A DNA stretch of 64,000 nucleotides from positions 32,001-96,000 of the forward strand of contig JAWBYA010000005.1 in NCBI GenBank assembly GCA_038867615.1, written 5' to 3'. Positions 16,863 to 38,511 of this stretch are shown one piece after another. Position 1 is the first letter of the stretch. Every line of letters begins with the position of its first letter. The position numbers and the translations under genes were made by a program. Source of the DNA: Sulfolobales archaeon. Lineage in GTDB: Archaea > Thermoproteota > Thermoprotei_A > Sulfolobales > AG1. The notes below the pieces were generated by a model, which saw only the letters and a list, made by a program, of their open reading frames with translations, ran no database searches and was not told the origin of the DNA.

Positions 16863-17023
16863 ACGTGTTACGGAATGTTATTAGGCTAGTATGCTTCTAA
16901 CCATTGTTTTTCGTAATACCAAGCCCTGGTGAAGCTCCACGCTTTACAAGCCAGCTATATATTAGTATCTAGTGGATCTTATTACGTAGAGGGAGTGGTA
17001 GCCGAAAGTATTGAGGTGATCTT

Positions 17024-17563
17024 TTGAGACTATTCTCACACATAGTGGCCGGGATAGGGGCGGGATCTATAGCCTCTATGCTATATGGAAACCACTATGG
17101 AGCCTTCCTCTATATAGTAATTCTATCGTTTGTGATAAACATCATAATAGATCTTGGTCACACAAGGATCAGGGGTATTGTTATACGAAGCCCCTACACT
17201 CATGAGGCTCTGAACAGCATAGTGATATCGATCCTGGTAGGATCTATAGTGTGGATAGCGATCGGCAACCTATACGGAGTATCGCTACATGCATCCCTCT
17301 CGGCATCACTCCTAATATCAGGATCACACCTACTAGGGGATCTAATAACCAGGGGCGGGATCTATGTGAGGATCGGTGCAAATATGCTAAGAATCTCCCT
17401 CGCCGACTATAGCTATAAAGATCCCCTTGCTAACGCGATCTACGTGGCGATCCTATCACTACCATTAATAATAAGCCTTGCCGGGATCGCAAGCAGCCCG
17501 AGCGAGATACCCTGGTATAGTCTAGTTGATAAGCTAGTCGGCATCTATGGAACCGCTGGCTAG
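17024..17563 (+). CDS. Membrane-bound metal-dependent hydrolase (DUF1286/YdjM-like)
   Basis: SH...DLGH...RSPYTHE...SHLLGDLIT motif pattern within TM helices. Confidence 0.7.
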   Translation: MRLFSHIVAGIGAGSIASMLYGNHYGAFLYIVILSFVINIIIDLGHTRIRGIVIRSPYTHEALNSIVISILVGSIVWIAIGNLYGVSLHASLSASLLISGSHLLGDLITRGGIYVRIGANMLRISLADYSYKDPLANAIYVAILSLPLIISLAGIASSPSEIPWYSLVDKLVGIYGTAG

Positions 17564-17717
17564 TGGTTTTACTAATAGATAAAAGCCAGCTGTTAGTCGA
17601 TAACCGCTCCCTATATATGATTCTTCCAAGGGCTTGGGAGAATATTTAGTGGATCAAAATAAACGTGACGGGCTAATAGTTTTAAACCCTGAGCCGCTAT
17701 ACTATGTAGTGCTCCTC

Positions 17718-18668
17718 ATGCCCGCCAATAATCCACAGACCAGCGGTTCGGGGTCTAGTGGTGCTAGGCTTCCTGTAATAAGGTTTGAGGAGGAGATGCA
17801 TAACCTTGTCTCGGTTGCTAGTGAGCTCATAGAGCAGGAGAAAGAGTTTGCTGTGGTGATGGTGCTTAGATCCCAGGGATCCTCGGCTGTAAAGACAGGG
17901 GCTAAGGCTATAGTGCTTCCGGAGGGTAGGATTATAGGCTGGCTGGGCGGGTGGTGCAGTGAGAACGCAGTGCTTACAGCAGCTTTAGAGGCTCTTGAGA
18001 AGGGGACTCCCAAGATAGTGAGGCTTGTTATGAAGGGTGATGAGCTGAGAAGGATTGGGGAGGATGTTATAGAGGTTGGAACCCCGTGTGGGGGTGAGGT
18101 TGATATCTATATAGAGCCTGTATATCCAAGACTACAGCTCCTCCTTGTGGGTGATAATGAGGTGACAAGGATGCTTGCGAAGATCGGAAAGATCCTGGGC
18201 TATAAGATCGCGGTATATGATATGATGGCAACCAAGGAGAAATACCCAGAGGCTGATATCATAATAAACTCCCCCTCATCCCTCGAAAAAATAAGGATAG
18301 ATAGGAACACAATAGCAGTCCTAGCCACCATGGGGAAGACATGGGTTGATGAGGAGACCCTCGAGAGGCTCCTAAAAACAGACATCGGGTTAATAGAGCT
18401 CATATCAAGCACCAAAAGAGCCCAGGAGATCCTCAAACTACTCATTAAGAAGGGATACAGACCAGAGGATCTCAGAAGAATAGTAACACCAGCAGGGATA
18501 GATATAGGAGCCATATCGCCTGGAGAGATAGCTATCAGCGTGCTAGCAGAGATCATCATGTCCCGAAGAGGAGGCAGTGGAAAAAGCATGAGGGAAGTGA
18601 AAGGAGACCCCCTCGCGAACATCCTCAGCGCCATAGAGAGCCCAGCCCTCTCCCAACCCGAGAAATAA
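17718..18668 (+). CDS. XdhC/CoxI family molybdo-hydroxylase maturation protein
   Basis: GSSAVKTGAK, GWLGGWCSE, PCGGEVDIYIEP, PAGIDIGAISPGEIAISVLAEI; ATG at 17718 preferred over 17634. Confidence 0.88.
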   Translation: MPANNPQTSGSGSSGARLPVIRFEEEMHNLVSVASELIEQEKEFAVVMVLRSQGSSAVKTGAKAIVLPEGRIIGWLGGWCSENAVLTAALEALEKGTPKIVRLVMKGDELRRIGEDVIEVGTPCGGEVDIYIEPVYPRLQLLLVGDNEVTRMLAKIGKILGYKIAVYDMMATKEKYPEADIIINSPSSLEKIRIDRNTIAVLATMGKTWVDEETLERLLKTDIGLIELISSTKRAQEILKLLIKKGYRPEDLRRIVTPAGIDIGAISPGEIAISVLAEIIMSRRGGSGKSMREVKGDPLANILSAIESPALSQPEK

Positions 18669-18758
18669 TACTCCTCCCTATTATCGAGGATACAGTTTCA
18701 AAACGATTCAAAAACCGGGCAAGCCGACCTGCTAATCGAGAGAGGTCTTACAAATCTA

Positions 18759-20042
18759 TCAAATGCTATATAGCTCGGAACCCTGGATCACATGATCCGA
18801 GGCTCTTCTCGTCTTATACCAGTCAACCCTTCTCATAAAGATCGCTAGCACGGCTGCTACTGACATTAGGATCCAGTATAGGGGTATTGCGAGGGCGTGG
18901 ACAGCAAGATCGATCCCTCTCCTAGGGCCTTTATTGTTTGCAACGGCTAGCATTATAACAAGCAATGGTAGCAAGCCCTCTATGAATAATACTACAAGCA
19001 TGGATCCATAGGGGGCTAGTGTGATGGTGATACCATTATTAGCACTAGACCCGCTGTCATGGGTAGAGCCTCTGGCTATATAGGACATGGTCATCAGGAT
19101 CGTTATTACCGATAGGACCAGCGATGTCACAGCAACTATGGGTCCTAGATAGCCTATCGATGCTTTAAGCCTTCTCCTACCCCCATAGATCAGGATCCTG
19201 GCTAAACACTCAAGATGACCCCTATACCATCGTATCCTCTGCCTAATATGACTCGTAATATCTAGAGGTGCGGCCTCCTCTACATAGGAGTCTAGCAACC
19301 CGATCCTATATCCCTTCTCGAAAAGAATGAGGGAGAGGTAGGCATCCTCCGCGAGCTTCTCCGGAAAACCGCCAAGCCTCATCAAAACCTCCTTCTTTAT
19401 ATAGAGCCCCTCTCCGCTCAGGGGTACGTGGAAGCCAGCCTTTCTCAGAGCATTTATCACCAAGTCGAACCATATAACGGTATCTATATAGATCATCTTG
19501 CCCAGCACCCCCTCACCATATCTATAAACCCTAACACCCAGAGCATCGTAACCCCTACTGCTCATGAGCCTCACAGCCTCCTCAAGCTGGTTCTCATCAA
19601 AAGAATCATCGGCGTCATATACAGCTATTATGCTACCGGAAACCCTATCTATAACCTGGTTGAGAGCCCTAGCCTTAGAGCTCCTCCCACCCTTAACAAC
19701 ATAGATCCTAGCATCAACCCCCCTGCTTCTTAGAAACTCAAGGGCTTTTTCGGCACCCCTCAGGGTCTCTTGATCCTCTTCCTCTACTATGAGCCACACA
19801 TCATATAGATCCTTGGAGTATCTCTGCCTAGCAATGCTTGAAACAGTCCTCATAATAGATCCTGGTTTCTCCATGTATAGAGGGATAAGGATAGACACCC
19901 TATGCTGCACACTGTTTTTCTCACCACTAGTCCGGGATGGTTTCTCGTAAGAGCCACGCTCCCTGCTAGCGCTATATATAGCCACCCATATTAGGGCGCT
20001 GAAGCCTAGGTAAGTTGAGAGAAGCACCATTTCAAGTGACAT
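18759..20042 (-). CDS. Glycosyltransferase family 2, processive/membrane type
   Basis: KARALN, YDAD, AED, QRIRW motif, C-terminal TM helices. Confidence 0.88.
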   Translation of the reverse strand: MSLEMVLLSTYLGFSALIWVAIYSASRERGSYEKPSRTSGEKNSVQHRVSILIPLYMEKPGSIMRTVSSIARQRYSKDLYDVWLIVEEEDQETLRGAEKALEFLRSRGVDARIYVVKGGRSSKARALNQVIDRVSGSIIAVYDADDSFDENQLEEAVRLMSSRGYDALGVRVYRYGEGVLGKMIYIDTVIWFDLVINALRKAGFHVPLSGEGLYIKKEVLMRLGGFPEKLAEDAYLSLILFEKGYRIGLLDSYVEEAAPLDITSHIRQRIRWYRGHLECLARILIYGGRRRLKASIGYLGPIVAVTSLVLSVITILMTMSYIARGSTHDSGSSANNGITITLAPYGSMLVVLFIEGLLPLLVIMLAVANNKGPRRGIDLAVHALAIPLYWILMSVAAVLAIFMRRVDWYKTRRASDHVIQGSELYSI

Positions 20043-20141
20043 GTATCATTACCAATGATGATTCGTGAGAGGAGATATATTTCATAAACCCAGGGCTGGG
20101 TAGCGAATAGTATAGATGCTGTTTATAAACCAGAGTAAGAT

Positions 20142-20435
20142 CTATAGGAGCTTCTCTATAGCTTCTTTGAGGTTCTGGGCGTAGGTTTTAGCCTCAATAA
20201 GGATCTCTATGAGCACGTCAACAGGATCTCTCGTCCCGTCTGTTATGATAACAACCCTTGGTTGCGATGTTTGGGGATGATCCACTATATATGCGGCATA
20301 GCTCACATATGGTTTCCTAATAGCCAGCTTGGATATTAGGTTAGGTATTCCATGCTGATCCCCCGTTAGTGTGAATATAAGCTCTCTATCGCTTCTCTTC
20401 TCAATCTTGATCCTCGGGATCAGGTCTATAGACAT
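20142..20435 (-). CDS. rpoL: DNA-directed RNA polymerase subunit Rpo11 (RpoL)
   Basis: 97 aa; GDQHGIPNL (divergent GEDHTLGNL) and VSYAAYIVDHP motifs. Confidence 0.75.
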   Translation of the reverse strand: MSIDLIPRIKIEKRSDRELIFTLTGDQHGIPNLISKLAIRKPYVSYAAYIVDHPQTSQPRVVIITDGTRDPVDVLIEILIEAKTYAQNLKEAIEKLL

Positions 20436-20496
20436 TGCCCCTTCCTATAAAGCTAGCGTAACCAGCTATATATTTATAAAGCAGACCCCGGATCCT

Positions 20497-21114
20497 TTAT
20501 CTAATGATCTGGAGCACTATTGATATAGCTATGAGGGCCACCGCTATATAGAGTATCCTTAACGATGGATCACCAATATAGATACTAACCTCCCTCGGGA
20601 TCTTCTTTACAGCCTGCCTCTGAACAACCTTCTGAGGCTCTTGATAGGATAGCTCGAGCTCCGAGTCCCTGTCAAGGAAAACCTGTTTCTGAACAGCAAT
20701 ACTCCCCTCTATAGATAGCCTCACAATATACTCCCCCTCGGCTAGGTTGAAAGCGATCTCCTTGGGATTAACCCTCTCCTTCTCGGAGTAGTTGCTACCT
20801 ACCACCTCTACTACGGCATCTTTAGGGATATTCTTACCCTTCACCTTGACAGAAAGCCTATAGATCCTAGGCTCTCTGAGCCATCTCGGTTCAACTAGAT
20901 CGTGGCCCAGAACCCTCTTTCCATAGCTGTTTATCTCATCAACAAGATCCCTATAGATCTTATAGATCTTCATCTTGGTCTCGTAAGGAGCGCCAGATCT
21001 TAGAACTATAACGTTATAGCTACCCTTAAGCATTTCAAAGGACTCTACCACCACCTCCTCGCTACACATACCGTCAGAAGATCCGCAGGATCTCCACATA
21101 CTATCCCTCAGCAT
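20497..21114 (-). CDS. Hypothetical protein with C-terminal membrane anchor
   Basis: 205-aa ORF ending in a hydrophobic helix. Confidence 0.65.
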   Translation of the reverse strand: MLRDSMWRSCGSSDGMCSEEVVVESFEMLKGSYNVIVLRSGAPYETKMKIYKIYRDLVDEINSYGKRVLGHDLVEPRWLREPRIYRLSVKVKGKNIPKDAVVEVVGSNYSEKERVNPKEIAFNLAEGEYIVRLSIEGSIAVQKQVFLDRDSELELSYQEPQKVVQRQAVKKIPREVSIYIGDPSLRILYIAVALIAISIVLQIIR

Positions 21115-21539
21115 AGCCAGCGTGTTAGCAACATCCCTCTCATAGTTATCGCTAGGATCTAGAATGCTTATATATTTATTAATAATCCTGGATATTATGT
21201 AGTGAAGATCAACCTTCCTGCTTATACCGGCAACCCCAAAATAATATGGGATAGAAATTCTTTTATATTAATAGCACCGCAAGGCATAACCAATATAGAA
21301 AGATCCCGTGTTCTTTACCCCGATCCCCCAGCACAGAGATCCTTTCAATTTTTAGCTCTAAGTTGACCTGGGCTAGGTTTATGAACCGTACTTGCTCTCT
21401 CTTCTAATCTAACCAATGTATCTTGCCAGGATACTCGCGGGGGTGTGTAACTGATAGAAGATCTTTAAAGGCACGCTATATCACATTGCATGATAAAACA
21501 GAGAAGTTTATAAGCTTGCTAGCGTCATAAATCGATAGT

Positions 21540-24500
21540 ATGAAGAATCTTACAAGCTTTTTAGGTCTCATATTTGAAGGAGCCTTTAAGATCGGTTTTA
21601 TGGAGAACAAGCTCCCGAAGGACGAGTATGAGAGGTTTGAGAAGGGCGTTTTCGAGTATATAAAGAGCAGGGCAGGTGATCGTGACCTTGAAGAGATCCT
21701 TAAAGACATAGAGGAAAGCTTTCGGTATTCCATGTATAGAGAGCCTCCGAAGAATCTTAGCGAGCTAAGCAGGCTTTTGAAGCAAAGATATCAGGAAGAG
21801 CAGACTAACGGTACTATAAAGAGAGAGTGGAAAGAGATCTATACCAAACTTATCTTCCTCATAGGATATTGGGGAGGTCTTTTCTATGGCAGGAAGTTCA
21901 AAGACGCAGAGGTGAAGAAATACCATATGGGGGAAGAGTCGGGTTCTGATATAATATGGGGTAATGCTGATCTCGTTTTCATAGAAAAGAATACTCTCCA
22001 CGTGGTGGATTTCAAGCTGGCTGGAGCGATCAGTTCTCTAAGAAGAATGCTCTTGGAAAGAGAAACAGTAATCCCTGTACCGACCTATGGTATCCCAGTA
22101 AACCTATCACTCGGAGAACTGGAGTTCTCGGGGTTTGTTGAAAAACTCCTCTTAGTAGAAGAAAGGCTTAGAGAGACCGAGGATGTATTTATAGAGACAA
22201 AAGGGCTCTTACAAACAACATGCTATGCTGTGGATTTCCTCTGCTCCGAGGAGAGAGATATAGAGGAAGTGAGCCTAGAGCTCTTATACCCAGTCTCCGA
22301 GCCGCTTAACCTGCGGTTTTCCGTAGGCGATAGAGGGAAGCTTAAAGACTATCTAGCGAGGATAAAGGATCTATATAGAGATATAAGGGAGAAAGAAAGT
22401 CTCTACGACAGGATCAGCTACGCAAGCTTATATAGAAAGGATAGGCTGAGAGCCGATATTGAGCGGATTGTGAAGGAAATGAGGAAAAGAGAATCAGAGA
22501 GGATCTCTATAAAAGCGGGCGATATAGCACAGGTTAGAGCTGACGTGAAGAAAAGACTCGAGGACTTTGTGAAGAGGGAGGATGATTGCAAGGCTATAGC
22601 CCTGCTCCACTCCGCGGGAAGTGGAAAGACGAGGAGCGCGAGGGAACTGATCCTCGACTTAGGCGGAAAGCATATAGTTCTTTACATGACAACACGCCTA
22701 CGCATCCTGGAGAGAGAATATAGGGTGTTAGAAAAACATTCTGAAGAGACCGAAAAGAGAATAGCGATCGTATACAAGAGAAGAGTAGGCAAAAGCGGGG
22801 GGTTCGTAAAGCACAAGGGCAAGGCTTACGAAGAGGTGGGAGGCAAGCAAGAAGGCATACTTCTATCCACAGTGAAAGAGATAGTAAGGCTTGCCCAAGA
22901 GGGTGAATACGATCAAATATGGGCCTTTACAACCATACAAGCAGTGGTTGAAACAGCCTTTGGCAAAACTTCAAACCACCTTGAAGAGCTCATGAGACCC
23001 ACCATTAAGGAAAGATACAACATCCATATAATCCTCGACGAGTTCCTCGGCTATAAAAACGGCCTCTACGCTGTAATAGAGATGTTAGATTTCGCCAGAA
23101 GATTCAAAGAAGGCGGTGGACGGATAAGCCTTTATCTTTTCGATGCCAACGGCTACTCCCCAGTTATTATGAAGAGACTGCTTGATGAGTACGAGAAATT
23201 CGGAGTATTACCAGAGGCCGTAGTGCTGGGTGAATACCAAGAGGAGCTGAAAACCGTCTACAAAGACATCCCCCTCGAAATATTCGCTAAACATGGCTAT
23301 CCGTCTGGACAGCTCTATCTATATAAGAAGTTCCTGAGGATCTCTAAAGAGAAGGAAAAACCAGAGAAGCTCGCCCAATATATACTAGATACTTTTAAAG
23401 ATAAGAAAAGCACCGCGTTTGCTTTTATACAGGATAAGGAGCTCATAGCAGAGCTATCCCAGATCCTTACAAAGCATAATTTATCCACATTGATAGCAAC
23501 AGCAAGTTCGGAGAAAAGCCAGAAGCAGATAAACGAAGGAGAAGAAGATGTGATACTAGGAACATCGTCTATCTCGAGAGGACTTGATTTTAGCAGGAGC
23601 CACAAGCCGGTGGACTATATATATGTGTTTATCCAGAGCTGGGGAATAGAGGGCAACCTGGTAGAGATACTACAATCCATATCGAGGGCTAGGGGGGATG
23701 AGGAGACCGAGAAGAGGGCAAAGCACGTGCATCTAGTCTATCTCATAAGCGATGAACACACAGACTATAGAGTGGATAACATACTGGCCACGTTAGAGAA
23801 TCCAGATAAGGATATCGTGAGACTTGTATACGAGAAAGAACATCTAGAGAGCTTTCTAGATCTCGACGATATTGTGACCAGGATAATAGAGCAGTTCGTC
23901 TCAAAACCTTCTGACAAGGTTCTCGTACCTATCTCGACACAGCATAGGAGTATATATAGGCCTAACAAGATCTCTGACTTTGAGGGTGTAATGACCTTCC
24001 TTGAAGATGTATATGCTATGGAGAAGAATGATAGAGATATATATAGACTTTTAGAAGAGCTAGGAGGCTCTATCTACACCTACTCCACACTACCCGAGCT
24101 GGGAAGACTCAATAGATTTGACTATTACCACCCCTATATACTTATCGACGAGCACCCAATATACATGGCTATGGTTGAAAAGGAAAAGAGACATGAGATA
24201 AAAAAACTCTTGAGGAAAGTAAGCAATACGCTCAAAAAACATAATAGAGAAAGAACGGAGAACGTGGAGAAGTTCATAGAAGATCTAATAACCCCCGAAG
24301 AGAGTAAAGCCCCTGTACTCATCCCCATATACTCTCTCGTCCTGGTAAAAAACTGGCTAGGACGAGATGAGGGAATAAGTTTCAAGATAAGGAAGAAAGT
24401 TGGAAGGGGACATGCAGAAGTCCTGGGAGGCCATTTAGAGCCGAGAACCCGGTGCTTTGTCGGTGACCGTATAGAGTACGCCTGCATACCCCTGGAAGAG

Positions 24501-24581
24501 GACTACCCATATAGAGAGATCCTTAGCGGGAGGTTCGCCAAATTCCCCGTAAGATTTATAAAGAGCCTCCTGGAGGCGTAG
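21540..24581 (+). CDS. PD-(D/E)XK (RecB/Cas4-like) nuclease fused to an SF2 helicase
   Basis: GNAD144LV...VVD157FK159 and QTTCY nuclease motifs; Walker A HSAGSGK363T; Walker B ILD500EF; motif V GTSSISRGLDF; motif VI QSISRARG. Confidence 0.8.
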   Translation: MKNLTSFLGLIFEGAFKIGFMENKLPKDEYERFEKGVFEYIKSRAGDRDLEEILKDIEESFRYSMYREPPKNLSELSRLLKQRYQEEQTNGTIKREWKEIYTKLIFLIGYWGGLFYGRKFKDAEVKKYHMGEESGSDIIWGNADLVFIEKNTLHVVDFKLAGAISSLRRMLLERETVIPVPTYGIPVNLSLGELEFSGFVEKLLLVEERLRETEDVFIETKGLLQTTCYAVDFLCSEERDIEEVSLELLYPVSEPLNLRFSVGDRGKLKDYLARIKDLYRDIREKESLYDRISYASLYRKDRLRADIERIVKEMRKRESERISIKAGDIAQVRADVKKRLEDFVKREDDCKAIALLHSAGSGKTRSARELILDLGGKHIVLYMTTRLRILEREYRVLEKHSEETEKRIAIVYKRRVGKSGGFVKHKGKAYEEVGGKQEGILLSTVKEIVRLAQEGEYDQIWAFTTIQAVVETAFGKTSNHLEELMRPTIKERYNIHIILDEFLGYKNGLYAVIEMLDFARRFKEGGGRISLYLFDANGYSPVIMKRLLDEYEKFGVLPEAVVLGEYQEELKTVYKDIPLEIFAKHGYPSGQLYLYKKFLRISKEKEKPEKLAQYILDTFKDKKSTAFAFIQDKELIAELSQILTKHNLSTLIATASSEKSQKQINEGEEDVILGTSSISRGLDFSRSHKPVDYIYVFIQSWGIEGNLVEILQSISRARGDEETEKRAKHVHLVYLISDEHTDYRVDNILATLENPDKDIVRLVYEKEHLESFLDLDDIVTRIIEQFVSKPSDKVLVPISTQHRSIYRPNKISDFEGVMTFLEDVYAMEKNDRDIYRLLEELGGSIYTYSTLPELGRLNRFDYYHPYILIDEHPIYMAMVEKEKRHEIKKLLRKVSNTLKKHNRERTENVEKFIEDLITPEESKAPVLIPIYSLVLVKNWLGRDEGISFKIRKKVGRGHAEVLGGHLEPRTRCFVGDRIEYACIPLEEDYPYREILSGRFAKFPVRFIKSLLEA

Positions 24582-24584
24582 AAC

Positions 24585-26930
24585 ATGTACGAAAGCAGGT
24601 TCGTAGAGAAGGATGAGAGGCTCGATCTGTTCGCAAGAGGGGAGCATGTGGGAAGTGACTTTATCTATGCTGGTATGTTCCACAACTACCAGGACGGATT
24701 CCTACAGAGCCTTGCTAACTATTTCTATAGACTCCTGAAGGGAGAAGATCCCGATAGGGTAGGAAACGAGCTGAGAGAATTCCTCTCAAATAGCAGAAAA
24801 GCTATTGGCGGGAATGCCATATACCGTAAAAAAGAAGTCTTAGAGCTAGGAGGCCCTTTCTCTATCTATAAAGGCGATAGAGAAGCAGGTTTCCCGAGAT
24901 ATAAAGAGAACTCGAGCTTCAAGATCTTCGAGCTTAAGGTAGGCACACCATCCGATATGGATAAAAAATCCGGGCTCGTGTTTCTAAAGATAAAGGGCTA
25001 TGAAGATAAGAAGCTCGACCAGAAGGTAGTGTTATCTGCAAGAAGAGACCTTCTAGACGAATGGATCCGCCTCACAGATGATAATAATGTGAGGAGCTAC
25101 CTAGAAGAGGTCAGGGAGGTATATAAGATCCTAGAGGGGTTCCCACTACGAAGAAACGAGCCTCTATCGAAACTTGCTTTTTACCTCTTCCCAATAGAGC
25201 TAAGCAGTTTTGAAAACATCACTATTGTCTCAAAGGTAAGCCTCTATAAGAGGAGGATAGAAACTAGGACAGGTCTATGGGAGGATATAATGAAAAACCT
25301 GAGTAAAGAAGATAGAAAAGATCTCGAATTCTCGCTGGAAAAGCATGGAAAAACACTGGATCATCTGAAACGCCTTCTAGATGAAGCACTATTACCGAAA
25401 AATCTCGACCTTCTTCGCAAAGACTGGAAAAAAGTTATAAAGAAATTCCTGAGAGGCGAAAGTAACAAGATCGAAGCGGTGTTCGTAGGCAAAGCTCCCC
25501 AGGAGGATAAGCACCCTCAACTCTCCTTTGGAAGATATAGAGTCCCTAGCGCTGATCTAGAGCTCTCAGTGTTTGTTGAGAAGGATTTCCAGATGGGGAG
25601 TTATGATAGTGATGGTATAGCGAAGATGCTGAGCACCGCTTTCTCAGGCTTCAAGTTCCTTGGAAATGTGAGGGTGAGGATAAACACAGAGAAAATAAAT
25701 AACCTAGAGTCGTTATTCGGCGGCGAGGATCTCTTTAGGCTTATAAGAGGAGATCACGCGCCAAAGAATATTAATAGGCTAGAGAATACCGACTCTATTA
25801 ACCTCATACATTCCCTTTGTTACTTCTCAACAAAGATCCTTAGCCTGGCGGGGAAGATAAAAGAGGAAGAACATAGGGGGAGATTCCATGGAGCACTCTT
25901 GATCCTCAATACCGAGTTGAAAGAGGAAGAGAGATATCTTCTCTGGGATGCTGTGAGGCTAATATATAGCTACTTTGGAGTCCCGATCCAGACCGTGACA
26001 AAAAGATCTCTTAGAGCTATGCTAGATAACGAAAAACGTAACGCTGTGATCAAGAATCTCCTTATAAGCCTCTACAAAGACACCAAAACCCTGGAGATCC
26101 ATTTTAGCAACCTCAGACTCCCGAAAGACGTCGTGGTCTATGCAGTTATAGAGAAACCGTCTTCCAGCTTTTTCTACCGGAAAGGCGAGAAAAGCGATAG
26201 AGCAAGACACTATCTCTATGAGATCTATAGGATAGAGATAAAGGATAAATACGCGACAGTGGAACTCGAGAAAAAAATCTTCGAACTATGGGGGGCAGAA
26301 TACTCTGAAATAGAGATGTGGCTGAAGCGCAATATGGAGCACAAGAACACCAGGTTCTGCTTAATAACAGCCTTGAGAGACTCTAGGCTTTGCAAACTAT
26401 ACGATGAGTTGGTGAACGCGGAATCCAAGGATAGGTTTTTAGTGATAAGATATGATGAGCTAAAAACAGCATATTTCTCTGAAAAGACTGAGAAGGATTG
26501 CTATATCATATACACAGAGGAGTTGGAGAAGCTTATAGAGAGACTGGGGATAAAGCTACAAGGTAGTGAAAGAAAAGCAGTCCTGGCCATAAAGCCCGCC
26601 CATATAAAGGCTATAGAAGACGTGGATGAGGAGCTATACCACCCATCCCTCCAGCTCTTTTTCACCGAAAGAATAGGCTGGGAGAGAGACGAGACATACT
26701 CGGAGAGAAAGGATCTCTTTATCTTTACAGTGCTCGCCCTCTCTATGTTTGAGAGCGAATCTTTCCAAACACCATATAGCAAGCTCGACATATGGGAAAA
26801 GACAAGGGACATCCATCTAGCTATACAGAGAGATCATAAAGAGTATATCTTCGCCCTAATACCAACGCTATACGAGATGATAAACTTCATAAAAGATATG
26901 CCAAGACCCCCGACAGAGCCGAGAAGCTAG
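24585..26930 (+). CDS. Divergent long prokaryotic Argonaute/PIWI-like protein
   Basis: P311QLSFG (L2 'PxLxF'), MID-like G465VPIQTV...N491LLISLYK498, PIWI-like strand VVVYAVIE523 and CLITALR598D599SR, C-terminal helix plus TP pattern; 781 aa; GGAGG SD at 24572-24576, 3 nt after the helicase stop. Confidence 0.62.
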   Translation: MYESRFVEKDERLDLFARGEHVGSDFIYAGMFHNYQDGFLQSLANYFYRLLKGEDPDRVGNELREFLSNSRKAIGGNAIYRKKEVLELGGPFSIYKGDREAGFPRYKENSSFKIFELKVGTPSDMDKKSGLVFLKIKGYEDKKLDQKVVLSARRDLLDEWIRLTDDNNVRSYLEEVREVYKILEGFPLRRNEPLSKLAFYLFPIELSSFENITIVSKVSLYKRRIETRTGLWEDIMKNLSKEDRKDLEFSLEKHGKTLDHLKRLLDEALLPKNLDLLRKDWKKVIKKFLRGESNKIEAVFVGKAPQEDKHPQLSFGRYRVPSADLELSVFVEKDFQMGSYDSDGIAKMLSTAFSGFKFLGNVRVRINTEKINNLESLFGGEDLFRLIRGDHAPKNINRLENTDSINLIHSLCYFSTKILSLAGKIKEEEHRGRFHGALLILNTELKEEERYLLWDAVRLIYSYFGVPIQTVTKRSLRAMLDNEKRNAVIKNLLISLYKDTKTLEIHFSNLRLPKDVVVYAVIEKPSSSFFYRKGEKSDRARHYLYEIYRIEIKDKYATVELEKKIFELWGAEYSEIEMWLKRNMEHKNTRFCLITALRDSRLCKLYDELVNAESKDRFLVIRYDELKTAYFSEKTEKDCYIIYTEELEKLIERLGIKLQGSERKAVLAIKPAHIKAIEDVDEELYHPSLQLFFTERIGWERDETYSERKDLFIFTVLALSMFESESFQTPYSKLDIWEKTRDIHLAIQRDHKEYIFALIPTLYEMINFIKDMPRPPTEPRS

Positions 26931-27149
26931 ATCATGAGGCGTGAACGGAATCAACCAACACTAGCGGGAACATGAACCTGTCTAACATATCCTATCCTAG
27001 TTCTAGCATATTGTGAGACTTCTAAGCACTCACAACGGTTATACGCTTATGTCTCGCCCGTTCCAGCGATCTATAGCCCATACAGCCCCCATATAGACCC
27101 ATGGAGAAATAGTCTAGAGCAACATAGGATGCCACGCTACATTGCTCTC

Positions 27150-28589
27150 CTAACCCTCCTTGGGCTTGGCGGAGATGTCGATAAGTCCTCCTACGATATC
27201 TGCACCGATTCTCAGTGTTCCTTTAGGGCTCTTCACCCTGGCTAGAGCTTCATCTATATCGATCCTAGCAAGCCCTCCTGTTCTTGAGATACTGCTCTCA
27301 ACCTTGATCGTTTTAGGAACTCTTGCCTTCAGATCCAGTATTCCTCCGGAGACATCGAGGTCTATCGATGATTCTCCCTCGAACTCGCCGTATGATAGAT
27401 CGAGCACTATTCTGCCACCACTGATCTCTAGCTCAACGCTAGATGCCCTCATATCTGTCGATGATATATTGGCAACCGAGCCCGTGAGATGACATGCCAT
27501 TCTCTTAACCCCGCTGAGGCTTATATCGATATACCCTCCACTCGCATCTAGATCCAGTGCTTCCAACCCGGTCTTAGGGGCTTCTATGACTGCCTCGCAT
27601 CCCGAGAGATCTATGCTTAGCTCTCCATCATCTAGATCTAGATCGTATTCGCACTTACTCCTCCACCCACCCCTCTCGTATATAGTCACCGCGGCATCGC
27701 TTCTATCGCTCGGGCTAATCCTAGCTATGCCCCCGCTCATATCTATCGATATGCTTTTAACGTTGGGGAAAGACTCTTTCAGGAGTAGAGCGCCCCGCTG
27801 CCCGAGATCCTTATCCTCAATAGATCTTAGTATCGGTGCTAGGCTCTTCATAACGTTGGAGACAGCGTTAGAGACTATGCTGGAGATAAATGCGCCTAGA
27901 GAGCCTAGAAAGGGGCTTAGTATAGCAGCATGCCCCCCACCCTCCTTTCTATCCTTGCTAGTGATCCAGAACACATCTCTACTCTTAAGCTGGGCTATCG
28001 GCAAGATCTTATCGGGTACTCTTAACGTGAACACGTCTCTTATACTCTCCACAACCTCGTCAAACAACTCTGGCTCAACATCATCGCCTACTTTAACCTC
28101 GAATACATCGGTTATGATTAGCCTCCTCCCCTGAACCCTGATCCTCTCAAGCATCTCTCTATTCACGGTGAGCGAGAACATATCGCTTATAATCACAGGT
28201 GTACCAGGCGTACCAGGTGTAACCCGATCCCGGGGCTCGGCAGGCTTAGCCACGCCCGGGGTTTCAACTATCCTTTCAGAAGACCTCTTCTCCTCATCCC
28301 GCTTTATACTCTGCTTACCAGCACCTTTTATAATACTATAGGCCCTCCATCCAAGCTCTGTTAGCTCGTAAACACCTTTCTCGTTCTTCCTTATAAAACC
28401 AGCCATTCTTCTTAGATGAAACGTCATTGTACCAGTATCGCTCACCCCAGCATCATCCATAAGCTCTGTAAAGCTCCTGGGACCCTTCTCAGCTATGCTC
28501 TCAATTATCTTCCTCCTAATCCTGTGACTCGCTACCAGAAAGATCCTATCGATATCCTCATCTCCACTATACTCCTCCTCACCCACCAC
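27150..28589 (-). CDS. ArsR-type winged-helix regulator fused to a DUF4097/adhesin-like beta-repeat domain
   Basis: ASHRIRRKII...SFTELM...TMTFHLRRM...YELTELG wHTH; C-terminal repeated hxhDhSGG units. Confidence 0.75.
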   Translation of the reverse strand: MVGEEEYSGDEDIDRIFLVASHRIRRKIIESIAEKGPRSFTELMDDAGVSDTGTMTFHLRRMAGFIRKNEKGVYELTELGWRAYSIIKGAGKQSIKRDEEKRSSERIVETPGVAKPAEPRDRVTPGTPGTPVIISDMFSLTVNREMLERIRVQGRRLIITDVFEVKVGDDVEPELFDEVVESIRDVFTLRVPDKILPIAQLKSRDVFWITSKDRKEGGGHAAILSPFLGSLGAFISSIVSNAVSNVMKSLAPILRSIEDKDLGQRGALLLKESFPNVKSISIDMSGGIARISPSDRSDAAVTIYERGGWRSKCEYDLDLDDGELSIDLSGCEAVIEAPKTGLEALDLDASGGYIDISLSGVKRMACHLTGSVANISSTDMRASSVELEISGGRIVLDLSYGEFEGESSIDLDVSGGILDLKARVPKTIKVESSISRTGGLARIDIDEALARVKSPKGTLRIGADIVGGLIDISAKPKEG

Positions 28590-28612
28590 GATCCCCTAAT
28601 CATCATGAGCGA

Positions 28613-28705
28613 CTCGTCATGAATATACCTTTTGACGAGACCCCTCATCAAAAATCCCGGAGAGTTTGACGAGACCACCCAACCTATGGGTTTATAGGTG
28701 ACGAG
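28613..28705. promoter_or_regulatory. Candidate operator array (TGACGAG repeats) in a divergent promoter
   Basis: CTCGTCA 28613-28619 / TGACGAG 28633-28639 inverted pair; CTCATCA 28644-28650 / TGACGAG 28667-28673; a further TGACGAG at 28699-28705. Confidence 0.5.
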
Positions 28706-28729
28706 CCTCTCCACACAACAACGGGGGCT

Positions 28730-29635
28730 GTGTTGGGATCCGGGGATGCTGTTATAGCCGAGGGTCTTGCGAAACAATACCCCGGCGGTGTTTGGGGGGC
28801 TAAGAGTGTGAGCTTCTCCTCAAACTATGGTGAACTGATCGTTATCCTAGGCCCCAACGGGGCTGGGAAGACTACCACTATAAACATGCTCACAACACTG
28901 ATCAAGCCCAGCAGTGGTAGGGGTCTTGTTGGTGGATATGATATCGTGGGTGAGCGTGATAAGGTGAGGAGGATCGTGGCCCTCATGCCACAAGACGCTA
29001 GTATGAGTAGTGATTGGACACCCTATGAGGCTGTCAAATGGTATCTCGTCGCAAGAGGCTTCAGTATCAGTGATGCTGGGAGGGAGGCTAGGATCTGGCT
29101 TGAAGAGATGGATCTATACGATGCTAGGAATAGACTCGGATGGTGGCTCAGTGGTGGTCAGAGGAAAAGGGTTCTCGCAGCTATGGTGCTCGCAACAAGA
29201 GCCCCAGTGATCTTTCTCGACGAGCCTACAAGTGGTGTTGATGTTGAGGGCAAGTATAAGGTTTGGAGCGCGATTAGAAGGGCCTGTAGAGATGCTAGGG
29301 CTGTGATATATACTACCCATGATATGAGGGAGGCTGAGCTTGTTGCTGATAAGGTTGTCATGATCGGTGAGGGTAGAACTATAGTTATTGGAAAACCAAA
29401 AGATCTAGTAGAGGGACTACCATTTAAATATAAGATTGTCTTGAGGGGTAAGGCTAACCATCCAGAGGGCTCGGTTGCAGAGCTGAGTGTGGGGGATATC
29501 ATGATAACATATTATAGGGATAGGAGCGATGCTATAAGAGCCCTGGATTCGATAGAGACTAGCGCCTCTATAGAGCCTGTATCGCTGGAGGATGCTTATC
29601 TATACTATGTAAAGATGAGGGGTGGGGGTAGATGA
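28730..29635 (+). CDS. ABC transporter ATP-binding protein (DrrA-like exporter)
   Basis: GPNGAGKTT, LSGGQ, FLDEPT, TTH. Confidence 0.92.
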   Translation: MLGSGDAVIAEGLAKQYPGGVWGAKSVSFSSNYGELIVILGPNGAGKTTTINMLTTLIKPSSGRGLVGGYDIVGERDKVRRIVALMPQDASMSSDWTPYEAVKWYLVARGFSISDAGREARIWLEEMDLYDARNRLGWWLSGGQRKRVLAAMVLATRAPVIFLDEPTSGVDVEGKYKVWSAIRRACRDARAVIYTTHDMREAELVADKVVMIGEGRTIVIGKPKDLVEGLPFKYKIVLRGKANHPEGSVAELSVGDIMITYYRDRSDAIRALDSIETSASIEPVSLEDAYLYYVKMRGGGR

Positions 29636-30363
29636 GCCCAATAGCGTTTCTAAGAGGAGTAATAGGTGTAGCTAGGCTTGAGGGCGCGTGGATTGTTAGA
29701 CAACCCTCATGGATGATCCAGGTAATATTGATCATGACGGGCTTCGTAGTACTCCTCTGGGCCTGGGGAGGTGTGAAGGGTCTGGGGTATATGATATCGG
29801 GCTGGATGATCGCCAGTGCTTTCTCCACAGGCGTAAACATAATGGGACAGATCGTTGGGTGGGGTAGGGTTACTAGGATTATTGATCTCTTCATAGTATC
29901 CCCCATAACCCCTATAGCCTACTTCACAGGCTCGCTGATCGGCAGCCTCGCTATATTCCTAGTAGACGTAACGATCTTCACATCAATAGGGCTCTTAACA
30001 GACTATCTCTCCCTAGTAATCTATAGCTTGATCGCCTCATTATTAGTGCTCCCAATAGGTGTTCTTCTAGGACTCTCAATAGTGTTTCGGGTGAAGAAGC
30101 CGACAAATATAAGCGCTATAACAAACCCCGTAGCCTCCATAATATCCTTCCTACCACCGGTCCTCTACCCAGCATCAATCCTGCCAGAGCCTTTGAATGT
30201 AATAGCATGCCTAGCACCAACAGCAGCCGGGGCTGAGCTTGCAAGAACTCTCAGCGGTCTCGGCTCTCCACTAGATCCCTTACTACTAACCGCTATATTG
30301 CTAGCATGGATAGCCATCCTGATCATACTATCCCGAAGGATCATCCTATGGTCTCTAGAATAA
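29632..30363 (+). CDS. ABC-2 type permease
   Basis: ATGA overlap with the ATPase gene, about 6 TM helices, PVLYPASILP motif. Confidence 0.85.
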   Translation: MSPIAFLRGVIGVARLEGAWIVRQPSWMIQVILIMTGFVVLLWAWGGVKGLGYMISGWMIASAFSTGVNIMGQIVGWGRVTRIIDLFIVSPITPIAYFTGSLIGSLAIFLVDVTIFTSIGLLTDYLSLVIYSLIASLLVLPIGVLLGLSIVFRVKKPTNISAITNPVASIISFLPPVLYPASILPEPLNVIACLAPTAAGAELARTLSGLGSPLDPLLLTAILLAWIAILIILSRRIILWSLE

Positions 30364-30410
30364 AACGCGAACCAGAAACAGAGATATAGACCCAAATAGC
30401 AATAATACAT

Positions 30411-30465
30411 AGATGAGGAGTTTTTCGGGGACCCGAGCGGTGAGGAAGCGGTTATCCACCGACTG
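30411..30465 (+). ncRNA. Box C/D methylation guide sRNA
   Basis: C ATGAGGA 30413-19, 13-nt guide, D' CCGA 30433-36, C' GTGAGGA 30440-46, 12-nt guide AGCGGTTATCCA, D CCGA 30459-62; canonical archaeal spacing; intergenic. Confidence 0.75.
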
Positions 30466-30776
30466 CAAAGCAACCCTATCAAAGGTTAAATACCCCACCC
30501 ATGGGCAAACCCACGGTGGGAGAAAAGAAAAATAGCTCTATATATGAGGTGTCATCAAAAATCCCCAAACACTCCAATAATGCGCATATCATCAACCTCG
30601 CACGTATCACTCTAGTCTATTAATGGAATAAACCCCTACACAGCTGGTAAATAACACTACCCTAGATAGAGATCCGCGACCAAGTCCTATTTAGCTGACA
30701 ATGGTATAATCCCTAGTCGGGGGCTAGGTTAAAAACAACCAAGGATCCCAGAGATGCCCTTCTAGGCGATATAGCA

Positions 30777-37746: not shown

Positions 37747-38511
37747 TCATTTTATCTCTAGCTCTCTTCCGTATATTGTTTCTATTCCTAGCTCTTTTGC
37801 TCTTTCTATTGCTTCCTTCATTACGTTTATGGCTACTATTATTTTCTTATCAGGTTTTTTCCCGAGTATTTTTTCGAATATCTCACATCTCTCGTAGAAC
37901 CACTCAACATCGTCTAGCTCTAGAAGGCTTCTAACCTCTATGAAGTATGTGATATTGTCGTGCACATAGATATCTATCTCAAGCCTCGCACCCCTTCTAT
38001 AGTATCTCCCATCGATATCCTTATAGCTTATCTTCTCAACCCTGGCTGGAGAGATCCCTAGTTCTTCTAAAATATCGGAATAGACGTTAAGGATCATTCT
38101 CTCAAGATCTATGCCAACCCTTCCAGACAAGCTCCCGAGAGAGGCCTCGATCCTCATCAAAGCCTTAGAGTGTTCTTGAAGAATCTTAGAATGCTCCTGA
38201 AGAATCCTAGAATGTTCTTGAAGAATCTTAGAGTGGTACTCGAGGATCTTAGAATGTTCTTCGAGAATTTTAGAGTGTTCTTGAAGAATCCTGGAGTGCT
38301 CCTGGAGCGTTCTGGAATGTCCTTCGAGGATTTCTGCGTGTCTTCCAAGTATTTCGTAGATTTTCTTGATATGCTCTGCTATAGTCTTAATAGCCTCTGC
38401 GATATCCCTAAGCTCCTCCGTCCTTGCAGCCCTTACAGCCCTCTCAATGATCTCTTCTATGGTTTTCCAATCAATACTAATGCTCGCGCCTTCTGAATCC
38501 TTGGTGCTCAT
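37747..38511 (-). CDS. Coiled-coil plus PD-(D/E)XK-fold protein (DUF3782-like)
   Basis: Nine ILxEHS(K/R)-type heptads, then LEIDIY...FIEVRS nuclease-like core and AKELGI end motif. Confidence 0.8.
   Translation of the reverse strand: MSTKDSEGASISIDWKTIEEIIERAVRAARTEELRDIAEAIKTIAEHIKKIYEILGRHAEILEGHSRTLQEHSRILQEHSKILEEHSKILEYHSKILQEHSRILQEHSKILQEHSKALMRIEASLGSLSGRVGIDLERMILNVYSDILEELGISPARVEKISYKDIDGRYYRRGARLEIDIYVHDNITYFIEVRSLLELDDVEWFYERCEIFEKILGKKPDKKIIVAINVMKEAIERAKELGIETIYGRELEIK
38164..38352 (-). repeat. 9 x 21-bp degenerate coding tandem repeat
   Basis: Encodes ILGRHAE ILEGHSR TLQEHSR ILQEHSK ILEEHSK ILEYHSK ILQEHSR ILQEHSK ILQEHSK; 189 bp. Confidence 0.9.

Follow-up and report, generated by a model that had tools for sequence, protein, structure and literature searches.

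Two anti-plasmid systems that couple an Argonaute-like protein to a helicase-nuclease, DdmDE of Vibrio cholerae and ApsAB of Escherichia coli ST38, have been demonstrated experimentally (PMC11096173, PMC13618286), and a related logic of sensor plus helicase-nuclease has been predicted for pPIWI-RE systems, a triad of genes in the strictly conserved order nuclease (restriction endonuclease, REase), helicase, and PIWI protein (PMC3702460). In addition, helicase-plus-PD-(D/E)XK-motif proteins are reported from operons of canonical prokaryotic Argonautes (pAgos) by Ryazansky et al. (2018), whose census began from PIWI sequence profiles (PMC6299218). We analyzed a two-gene cassette, consisting of gene 1 and gene 2, in a 64,000-nucleotide (nt) stretch of DNA from a Sulfolobales archaeon (referred to as the window), which encodes a putative nuclease fused to a superfamily 2 (SF2) helicase, followed by a highly divergent protein of predicted Argonaute/PIWI fold that profiles of the kind used in that census miss. 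Our best reading of the cassette, by analogy, is as a guide-plus-helicase-nuclease system like DdmDE, ApsAB, and pPIWI-RE, and we put the probability that it is a self-contained, horizontally mobile, two-gene module of nucleic-acid-guided interference at roughly 55%. This reading builds on the predicted fold of gene 2, the motifs and predicted helicase fold of gene 1, the strict pairing of the two genes, and their accessory, laterally transferred distribution. The two genes and the regions that we recognize in them are the following (positions are those of the window; amino acids, aa).

21540-24581, + strand: gene 1, 1013 aa, an open reading frame (ORF) at the same coordinates as in an earlier reading of the letters without database searches (the sequence-only reading).
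21900-22424, + strand: candidate nuclease core of gene 1, about aa 121-295, with E132, D144, D157-F-K159, K221, and Q225xxxY229.
22572-23759, + strand: predicted SF2 helicase core of gene 1, about aa 345-740, from motifs, Foldseek, and weak Helicase_C and ResIII matches.
23916-24578, + strand: C-terminal domain of gene 1, about aa 793-1013, highly conserved, for example at C972 and in the block 987-1006.
24572-24576, + strand: GGAGG, a Shine-Dalgarno-like motif that lies 8 nt upstream of the ATG of gene 2, still within the 3' end of gene 1.
24585-26930, + strand: gene 2, 781 aa, a protein of predicted Argonaute/PIWI fold from a sequence-orphan family.
25881-26084, + strand: about aa 433-500 of gene 2, a MID-like region in which a putative 5'-end pocket is conserved.
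26088-26894, + strand: PIWI-like region of gene 2 with a predicted RNase H fold, about aa 502-770, from the AlphaFold2 model, Foldseek, and conserved residues.

The comparison with DdmDE and ApsAB was made from published descriptions. Like the cassette, both are two-gene operons in which the helicase-nuclease comes first and an Argonaute-like partner, negative for the Pfam Piwi model, comes second; both join an SF2 helicase and a PD-(D/E)XK nuclease in one polypeptide, both are laterally mobile, and ApsB, the Argonaute-like partner in ApsAB, has a conserved MID-type pocket, as gene 2 appears to have (PMC11096173, PMC13618286). They differ from it in the placement of the nuclease, which is C-terminal in DdmD and ApsA (with a motif near residue 1430 in ApsA), whereas the corresponding motifs occupy residues 132-229 of gene 1, a protein of 1013 aa. 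The MID motif of ApsB reads Y-x3-K...QG...K, as against Y-x2-W...Q-T...K-N in gene 2; no DdmE chain occurs among the 20 significant fold matches of gene 2 described below; and the hosts are Proteobacteria in the one case and thermophilic Aquificota and archaea in the other. PADLOC-DB v2.0.0 (2023), a release in which DdmDE models are unconfirmed, gave weak matches only, to helicase models for gene 1 and to DrmMII for gene 2; we judge the DrmMII match (expectation value, E, 8e-4 over 87 residues) to be spurious.

pPIWI-RE systems share with the cassette the order of their modules, closely spaced genes, and a PIWI protein without PAZ-type motifs (PMC3702460), as well as, perhaps at equivalent positions, an invariant Arg and Glu toward the C-terminal end of the PIWI region (R749 and E764 in gene 2), and the ESM features of gene 2 resemble pPIWI-RE clusters. 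In contrast to the cassette, they comprise three genes (REase, DinG helicase, and pPIWI-RE), whereas here there are two, with nuclease and helicase fused; DinG has an iron-sulfur (Fe-S) Cys cluster that the gene 1 helicase is without; and they are described as bacterial only, whereas the cassette family occurs in Aquificota and archaea. Long-B pAgo systems with nucleases (RsAgo, BPAN) are a further point of comparison: RsAgo complexes are the best structural matches of gene 2, and these systems, too, combine a full-length protein that has N-terminal domains, MID-PIWI, and a degenerate catalytic tetrad (a probable one in gene 2) with a partner nuclease encoded alongside. They are unlike the cassette in that gene 2 is detected neither by PF02171 nor by profile-profile comparison with archaeal pAgos, and in that their nuclease partner stands alone, whereas here it is fused to a helicase.

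On the side of gene 1, the motif set D...D/E-x-K...QxxxY is that of Cas4/RecB nucleases. Cas4 proper differs in its four invariant Cys (present in 12 archaeal Cas4), as against no conserved Cys within residues 1-340 of gene 1, and in the distance from D-x-K to QxxxY, 12 residues in the Cas4 alignment and about 65 in gene 1. The lack of the four-Cys cluster speaks against Cas4 proper. The sequence-only reading had the cassette match none of the known architectures, which is apt for the N-terminal nuclease in relation to DdmD but overstated, the order being colinear with the pPIWI-RE triad (PMC3702460), and its comparison left out ApsAB (PMC11096173) and the PD-(D/E)XK-plus-helicase proteins of pAgo operons (PMC6299218). 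Its proposal that the pair is not an already described system agrees with the searches, which returned no full-length match in PADLOC-DB v2.0.0 (2023), Pfam, NCBIfam, or the literature; full-text searches found no description of the gene 1/gene 2 pair, in a literature coverage that is incomplete and hence no proof. We regard the PIWI-superfamily clade and the nuclease-first helicase architecture as new, and the working principle of guide plus helicase-nuclease as known.

Pairing of the two genes is close to strict. Ten genome loci, all in Aquificaceae metagenome-assembled genomes (MAGs), encode a gene 2 relative, and a gene 1 homologue lies directly upstream in each of the nine that are testable, the tenth being cut at the contig end. 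The metagenome analysis took in 79 contigs with gene 1, of which 63 are testable, gene 1 being complete at its 3' end and followed by 300 bp or more; in 59 of these 63, or 53 of 55 clusters at 98% identity, gene 2 comes next downstream on the same strand, and the two matches are mostly 5-41 nt apart, counted from where that of gene 1 ends to where that of gene 2 begins (59 values, -1 to 268). Gene 2 is truncated in one locus (L106). In the window, the TAG stop of gene 1 (24579-24581) is separated by the spacer AAC from the gene 2 ATG at 24585, leaving a gap of 3 nt, so the tightly coupled unit with a 3-nt gap and a GGAGG motif that the sequence-only reading described is exact in its coordinates and junction; the co-occurrence of the two genes in homologous loci, on which that reading had staked the system, is what the counts of 9/9 and 59/63 show. 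No third gene is conserved beside the cassette, and the flanks vary between loci, where they hold housekeeping genes (ThiF, a tRNA-binding protein, TrkA, PanE, and GrpE). A complex prediction that paired gene 2 with residues 800-1013 of gene 1 (its C-terminal domain), one domain pair only, gave no verdict (score 0.00) and is evidence neither way.

As a separate observation on the surroundings, one Aquificaceae subgroup carries a 259-aa ParB_N / GmrSD_N-like gene about 340 nt downstream of gene 2, beyond a gene with a tRNA-binding domain (L008 10632-11411; also L005 and L009). It could be a further defense-related gene or mere synteny.

Gene 2 belongs to a small family: searched exhaustively with its profile, 1.84 billion representative proteins yielded 43 members at E<=1e-3, 27 of them at E<=1e-30; a second, word-index search with the 28-row gene 2 profile added no new relatives, and none were found in PLSDB plasmids, INPHARED phages, or IMG/VR. 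It has no family match in Pfam or NCBIfam and no real match in the PDB, whether searched by single sequence or by 9- and 28-row profiles (a profile match to pelota, at E 0.026, is at chance level). Piwi-related Pfam models, including PF02171 and those for pPIWI-RE, match 0 of 28 family members at E<=10, and hhalign comparison with six archaeal pAgos, over the whole length and over MID-PIWI only, is nonsignificant (probability 0.3-0.6%). Since sequence profiles do not detect gene 2, the case for Argonaute homology is made entirely from predicted structure.

The AlphaFold2 model of gene 2, built from the 28-row alignment, has a predicted local distance difference test score (pLDDT) of 85.4 and a predicted template modeling score (pTM) of 0.86, and its 20 best Foldseek matches in the PDB all belong to the Argonaute/PIWI superfamily (E 8e-9 to 2e-3, probability 0.98-1.00; the next match is at E 0.08). 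They include RsAgo ternary complexes (the best, E 8e-9), AaAgo from Aquifex, the short pAgo of SPARTA, and AfPiwi from Archaeoglobus, the remainder being hAgo2, TtAgo, MjAgo, PliAgo, and yeast Med13. In the ESM Atlas, whose own model of gene 2 is of lower quality, residues 129-771 align to a cluster 88% of which is PF02171 Piwi, with template modeling (TM) scores of 0.46/0.51, and 6 of the 30 feature neighbors of gene 2 are pPIWI-RE clusters (score 0.94). On these models, gene 2 has a MID-PIWI/Argonaute fold and is a highly divergent member of the superfamily. The Argonaute-like landmarks that the sequence-only reading saw in the right order are thus recovered by fold (AlphaFold2 and Foldseek) and not by sequence profile, and the MID-PIWI fold that it required of gene 2 is the one returned by the top 20 matches; of its "divergent long pAgo", the Argonaute/PIWI fold stands, whereas membership in the long pAgos is without sequence support.

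Residue conservation was counted over the 28-row family alignment, in which identity goes down to 18%. Ten columns are invariant (28/28), namely E332, W454, Q469, K490, N491, S495, E523, F692, R749, and E764, and Y451, T470, K498, K501, Y623, K670, S724, and E725 are nearly so. Many of them fall in the MID-like region, with Y451 in 27/28, W454, Q469, K490, N491, and S495 in 28/28 each, K498 in 26/28, and K501 in 27/28; this is also the sole stretch of gene 2 that hhalign aligns to pAgo profiles, without significance. The spacing of Y451...Q469...K490 resembles that of the hAgo2-like Y-K-Q-K pocket for the 5' end. By analogy with the Y-K-Q-K motif of pAgo and ApsB MID domains (PMC11096173), these conserved residues may form such a 5'-end pocket in gene 2.

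In the PIWI-like region, E523 (28/28) ends the first PIWI strand, the place expected for the first catalytic Asp. Position 599 is Asp or Glu in 19/28, S724 is found in 26/28, position 725 is Glu in 26 and Asp in 2, and K733 is found in 25/28; R749 and E764 are invariant (28/28), and E764 is helical in the AlphaFold2 model. Mapped by eye, the tetrad of gene 2 would read E523 / ? / D-or-E599 / K733, as against the canonical DEDX, and no clear glutamate finger was found. Such a noncanonical tetrad would argue for gene 2 as a nonslicing sensor, and we lean toward a slicer site that is inactive.

A PF02171 search of the whole host genome gave no match. Searches with PF13032 came up empty in five Aquificaceae MAGs and in 151 genomes of their phylum, although in the latter search the controls were silent too, so that it tells nothing. 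Canonical Piwi-domain genes are rare in the class of the host, found in 5 of 151 genomes sampled (a sample that includes the host genome, with none there), and they are mostly short forms of 466-480 aa, with few longer (L013-L019).

Gene 1 has 86 homologues at 39-57% identity, in addition to the window's own database entry, and public records label the cassette homologues only "hypothetical protein" or "helicase". Within its first 20 residues, G9, E13, F16, K17, and G19 are invariant in the homologues, and we therefore place the start at ATG 21540, in preference to the M21 of the 993-aa database entry. Motifs were counted in 24 aligned homologues, which the aligner puts at 41-57% identity. The nuclease residues D144, D157-F158-K159, K221, Q225, and Y229 are invariant in 24/24, and E132 is present in 23/24. 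In the AlphaFold2 model of gene 1 (pLDDT 82.7, pTM 0.81), the predicted order of strands and helices in the N-terminal part is compatible with a PD-(D/E)xK core. For aa 1-335, the nearest clusters by ESM features have 15-31% PDDEXK_1 members (score 0.86-0.87), which is a lead only, and hhalign against 12 archaeal Cas4 aligned the QxxxY helix alone, in register, at a nonsignificant probability of 2.2%. With the motif set in place and weak further support, we regard the N-terminal domain as a probable RecB-like nuclease of the PD-(D/E)xK type.

The helicase core carries Walker A HSAGSGKT at 357-364, DEFL at 500-503, DAN at 535-537, TSSISRGLD at 675-683, and QSISRARGD at 712-720. Invariant in 24/24 are G360, G362, K363, and T364 (Walker A), D500-E501 (motif II), D535-A536, T675, S676, R680, G681, and D683 (the motif V region), and Q712, R716, R718, G719, and D720 (of which Q712, R716, and R718 are motif VI); the nuclease motifs and helicase motifs I, II, V, and VI noted by the sequence-only reading are in this way invariant across the 24 homologues. 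A Foldseek search of the gene 1 model against the PDB returned 573 matches at E<=0.001, the best 50 of which are SF2 helicases; the top ones are generic members (Vasa, RECQL5, DDX3X, Brr2, MrfA, Mfd, BLM, and UvrB), and no XPD or DinG chain is among those best 50 of 573. Family libraries gave subthreshold matches only, to Helicase_C (E 1e-3, below the Pfam cut-off) and ResIII, to type IV DinG and Cas3 in PADLOC, and to Cas3' and DinG in NCBIfam. Motifs and predicted fold agree that gene 1 is an SF2 helicase. Apart from C972, the alignment of 24 has no conserved Cys column (C228 is found in 13/24 and C235 in 11/24), and gene 1 therefore appears to have neither a Cas4-type nor a DinG-type Fe-S cluster; taken together, the lack of a conserved Cys cluster and of XPD or DinG in the top 50 fold matches indicates that the helicase is not DinG-type. 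For the C-terminal domain, Pfam, PADLOC, and NCBIfam gave no family match, and no D...D/ExK motif is visible in it by eye.

The cassette lies within an insertion/deletion polymorphism.

21263-27149, no strand assigned: insertion/deletion polymorphism of 5.9 kb that holds the cassette, with flanks contiguous in two congeneric genomes.

In one congener (G003, 93-94% nt identity), window positions 17000-21262 and 27150-30473 are matched with about 55 bp between them, and the other (G002) shows the same pattern of an empty site with about 41 bp between, the homology there continuing into the insertion as far as about 21285 from the left and about 27143 from the right. At the junctions we found no terminal repeat, target-site duplication, integrase, or tRNA, and one shared 8-mer only. 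The gene 2 family was found in 0 of 40 other related archaeal genomes, five of the same genus included; a sample of 151 genomes from the phylum to which an Aquificaceae MAG belongs has it in 32. The main home of the family is Aquificota, not archaea. In a tree of gene 1 (made by a quick method, unrooted, with some short MAG contigs perhaps mis-binned), the window groups in a clade with a WOR-3-labeled row and unlabeled rows, and other archaeal-labeled rows are scattered among bacterial (Aquificaceae) rows. Cassette DNA is present in hot-spring metagenome runs. The host of the window is a crenarchaeon, as the sequence-only reading had it, since its genome encodes Cren7 (E 1.9e-28), for which Sulfolobus alone is positive among 14 control genomes. 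Together, the empty sites, the patchy distribution, and the gene 1 tree indicate that the cassette is an accessory module, passed horizontally between hot-spring organisms and also between domains; by these data the host archaeon acquired it laterally, and they are evidence of transfer between bacteria and archaea. The G+C content, 0.43-0.45 over the cassette and its left flank (20001-26000, in three 2-kb segments) as compared with 0.46-0.49 in adjoining ones, is consistent with a foreign origin.

Two observations concern copies and relatives elsewhere. Two scaffolds of one Aquificaceae MAG (L005 and L007) each hold a whole cassette, 87% identical in DNA over about 6 kb, and these are either paralogous systems or two strains binned together. 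Five cyanobacterial conjugative plasmids encode a 1223-aa relative of gene 1, for example L120 3370-10076 (Tolypothrix sp. PCC 7712, NZ_CP063789.1; also H1 and H3-H5), with an hhalign probability of 98.8% and E 7e-17 over the helicase core and a similar N-terminus, in which the lysine of D-x-K is, by eye, apparently replaced by Ser. Upstream of it, overlapping by 4 nt, lies the gene for a 1012-aa hypothetical protein (L120 3370-6408) without sequence similarity to gene 2, and the nearest feature clusters to gene 2 in the ESM Atlas are hypothetical proteins of 1009-1170 aa, commonest in Cyanobacteriota and Bacillota. With its genes in the reverse order, the cyanobacterial plasmid pair may represent a sister system of wider occurrence.

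In the mechanism that we favor, gene 2 would load a short guide by its 5' end in the MID pocket (Y451, Q469, K490/N491, and K498/K501) and, so guided, would find complementary invader nucleic acid. Gene 1, as a processive effector, would then be recruited or released, and its ATP-driven helicase and N-terminal nuclease would unwind and degrade the targeted DNA, giving a division of labor between gene 1 and gene 2 like that of DdmD and DdmE, and of ApsA and ApsB. By analogy with these systems we infer guide binding, physical coupling of both proteins, DNA degradation, and a role in defense.

Several findings count against guided interference as the function of the cassette. Gene 1 occurs without gene 2 in 4 of the 63 testable metagenome loci (two clusters, L075/L076 and L117/L118); the window and most other loci lie outside recognizable defense islands, among housekeeping neighbors; and the sequencing runs listed for cassette DNA include no RNA runs. 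Gene 2 was missed by every sequence profile tried (Pfam, PADLOC, PDB, and the hhalign pAgos), and its Foldseek TM-scores are low, 0.24-0.32 by query and up to 0.45 by target, which is to be expected of models of flexible multidomain proteins but means that the fold match is no proof. The Lys at Y+4 of the Y-K-Q-K motif is missing, position 455 being Asp or Asn, and the nuclease call draws on motifs and weak leads, with no significant profile or domain-level fold match. As to the loci with gene 1 only, the place of gene 2 is taken in L075 (7448-9613) and L076 by a type I restriction R subunit (SWI2_SNF2, T1R_D3-like), after which comes a YgjP-like metallopeptidase, a defense-type neighborhood; the L075 protein downstream of gene 1 was considered as a hidden Argonaute and rejected, being this R subunit. 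In L117 and L118 (1238-4152), the genes that come after gene 1 are a TrbI-like and a secretin gene, of conjugation or secretion, which hints that it is carried there on a mobile element.

The resemblance to pPIWI-RE invites the alternative that the cassette is a fused thermophilic offshoot of that triad, gene 1 being the joined REase and helicase, and gene 2 using RNA guides to sense RNA-DNA hybrids (R-loops) where invader DNA is transcribed. The conserved order of nuclease, helicase, and PIWI (PMC3702460), the 6 of 30 ESM feature matches that are pPIWI-RE clusters (score 0.94), and R749 and E764, two of the ten invariant residues, which echo the defining R and E of pPIWI-RE, all fit such an origin. 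We nevertheless find it unlikely: PF13032, PF13111, and PF18157 match neither gene 2 nor any of the 28 family members, and nothing in the host genome at E<=1; the gene 1 helicase is not DinG-type (no Cys cluster and no XPD or DinG in the top 50); no gene for a Zn-ribbon/Y domain accompanies the cassette; and E764 sits in a helix of the model and not in a beta-sheet extension. The by-eye tetrad bears, in turn, on a reading with the roles reversed, in which gene 1 would be a RecB/AddA-like processor that makes small 5'-phosphorylated guides from invader or broken DNA, and gene 2 would be a slicer acting through E523 and other acidic residues. Some long-A pAgos are reported to depend on RecBCD-type helicase-nucleases for their guide supply, E523 is present in 28/28 where PIWI domains bear the first catalytic Asp, position 599 is Asp or Glu in 19/28, and position 725 is Glu or Asp in 28/28. 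Against this, K733 (25/28) falls, by the same mapping by eye, at the fourth tetrad position with no clear glutamate finger, the best structural match is RsAgo, which we take to be a catalytically inactive long-B pAgo, and we know of no active pAgo with Glu for Asp at the first tetrad position. Even with the helicase-plus-PD-(D/E)XK proteins of pAgo operons (PMC6299218) as a precedent, reversed roles seem to us quite improbable.

A function outside immunity, either in host DNA transactions (repair, replication-termination processing, or recombination) or in the maintenance or competition of a mobile element, would suit the flanking genes, which are housekeeping and not defense, and the insertion, which has no integrase, repeats, or defense neighbors; one gene 1-only locus stands beside conjugation-type genes (TrbI and secretin), and a distant gene 1 relative is found on cyanobacterial conjugative plasmids. 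Vertical conservation would be expected of a repair gene, however, whereas the cassette is patchy, occurring in 1 of 41 archaeal genomes (the window's own and 40 relatives) and in 32 of 151 in the phylum of the Aquificaceae MAG, has empty sites in congeners, and is spread across domains, and its closest functional analogues are all defense systems; we accordingly give a nonimmune role low odds.

Within the guided-interference reading, it is conceivable, if somewhat short of probable, that the cassette represents a third lineage of immunity, independent of DdmDE/ApsAB and pPIWI-RE, in which an Argonaute-like protein is joined with a helicase-nuclease, with a divergent PIWI clade missed by sequence catalogues and a nuclease-first helicase that may both make guides and destroy targets, a lineage frequent in Aquificota (32/151) that has crossed into Crenarchaeota. 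If the reading is true, gene 2 would define a new deep branch of the PIWI superfamily that is detectable only by structure, and sequence-based pAgo censuses would undercount. The combination of an Argonaute-like sensor with a helicase-nuclease effector would have been assembled at least once more, with another domain order, and this different order would help to define the essential parts of the DdmDE/ApsAB mechanism. The cassette would perhaps be a major unannotated defense system of hot-spring Aquificota, with transfer between bacteria and archaea, and it would constitute a naturally thermostable, two-protein, programmable DNA-elimination machine of possible interest for programmable nucleic-acid tools.

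The immediate surroundings of the cassette in the window are ORF-free over 425 nt upstream (21115-21539) and 219 nt downstream (26931-27149), in agreement with the flanks of about 425 and 220 bp, between unrelated genes, that the sequence-only reading gave. On the left lie genes for XdhC, a family 2 glycosyltransferase (GT2), archaeal RpoL, and a 205-aa hypothetical protein, and on the right those for a DUF7347 helix-turn-helix protein and an ATP-binding cassette (ABC) transporter, all functionally unrelated to the cassette. An Rfam scan of 20400-27400 found no RNA family, and a sigma-70 and terminator scan, whose model is not applicable to archaea, gave nothing above shuffles. The upstream flank contains one further feature.

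21507-21513, + strand: TTTATAA, read from the sequence, a candidate TATA box of archaeal type that lies about 27 nt upstream of the ATG of gene 1.

Used as a promoter, this element would, by analogy, give a leaderless or near-leaderless transcript of gene 1, with gene 2 then led by its Shine-Dalgarno motif. Farther along the window, and unrelated to the cassette, an imperfect tandem repeat with a period of 21/63 nt spans 38164-38333 in about six copies at 76-80% match.

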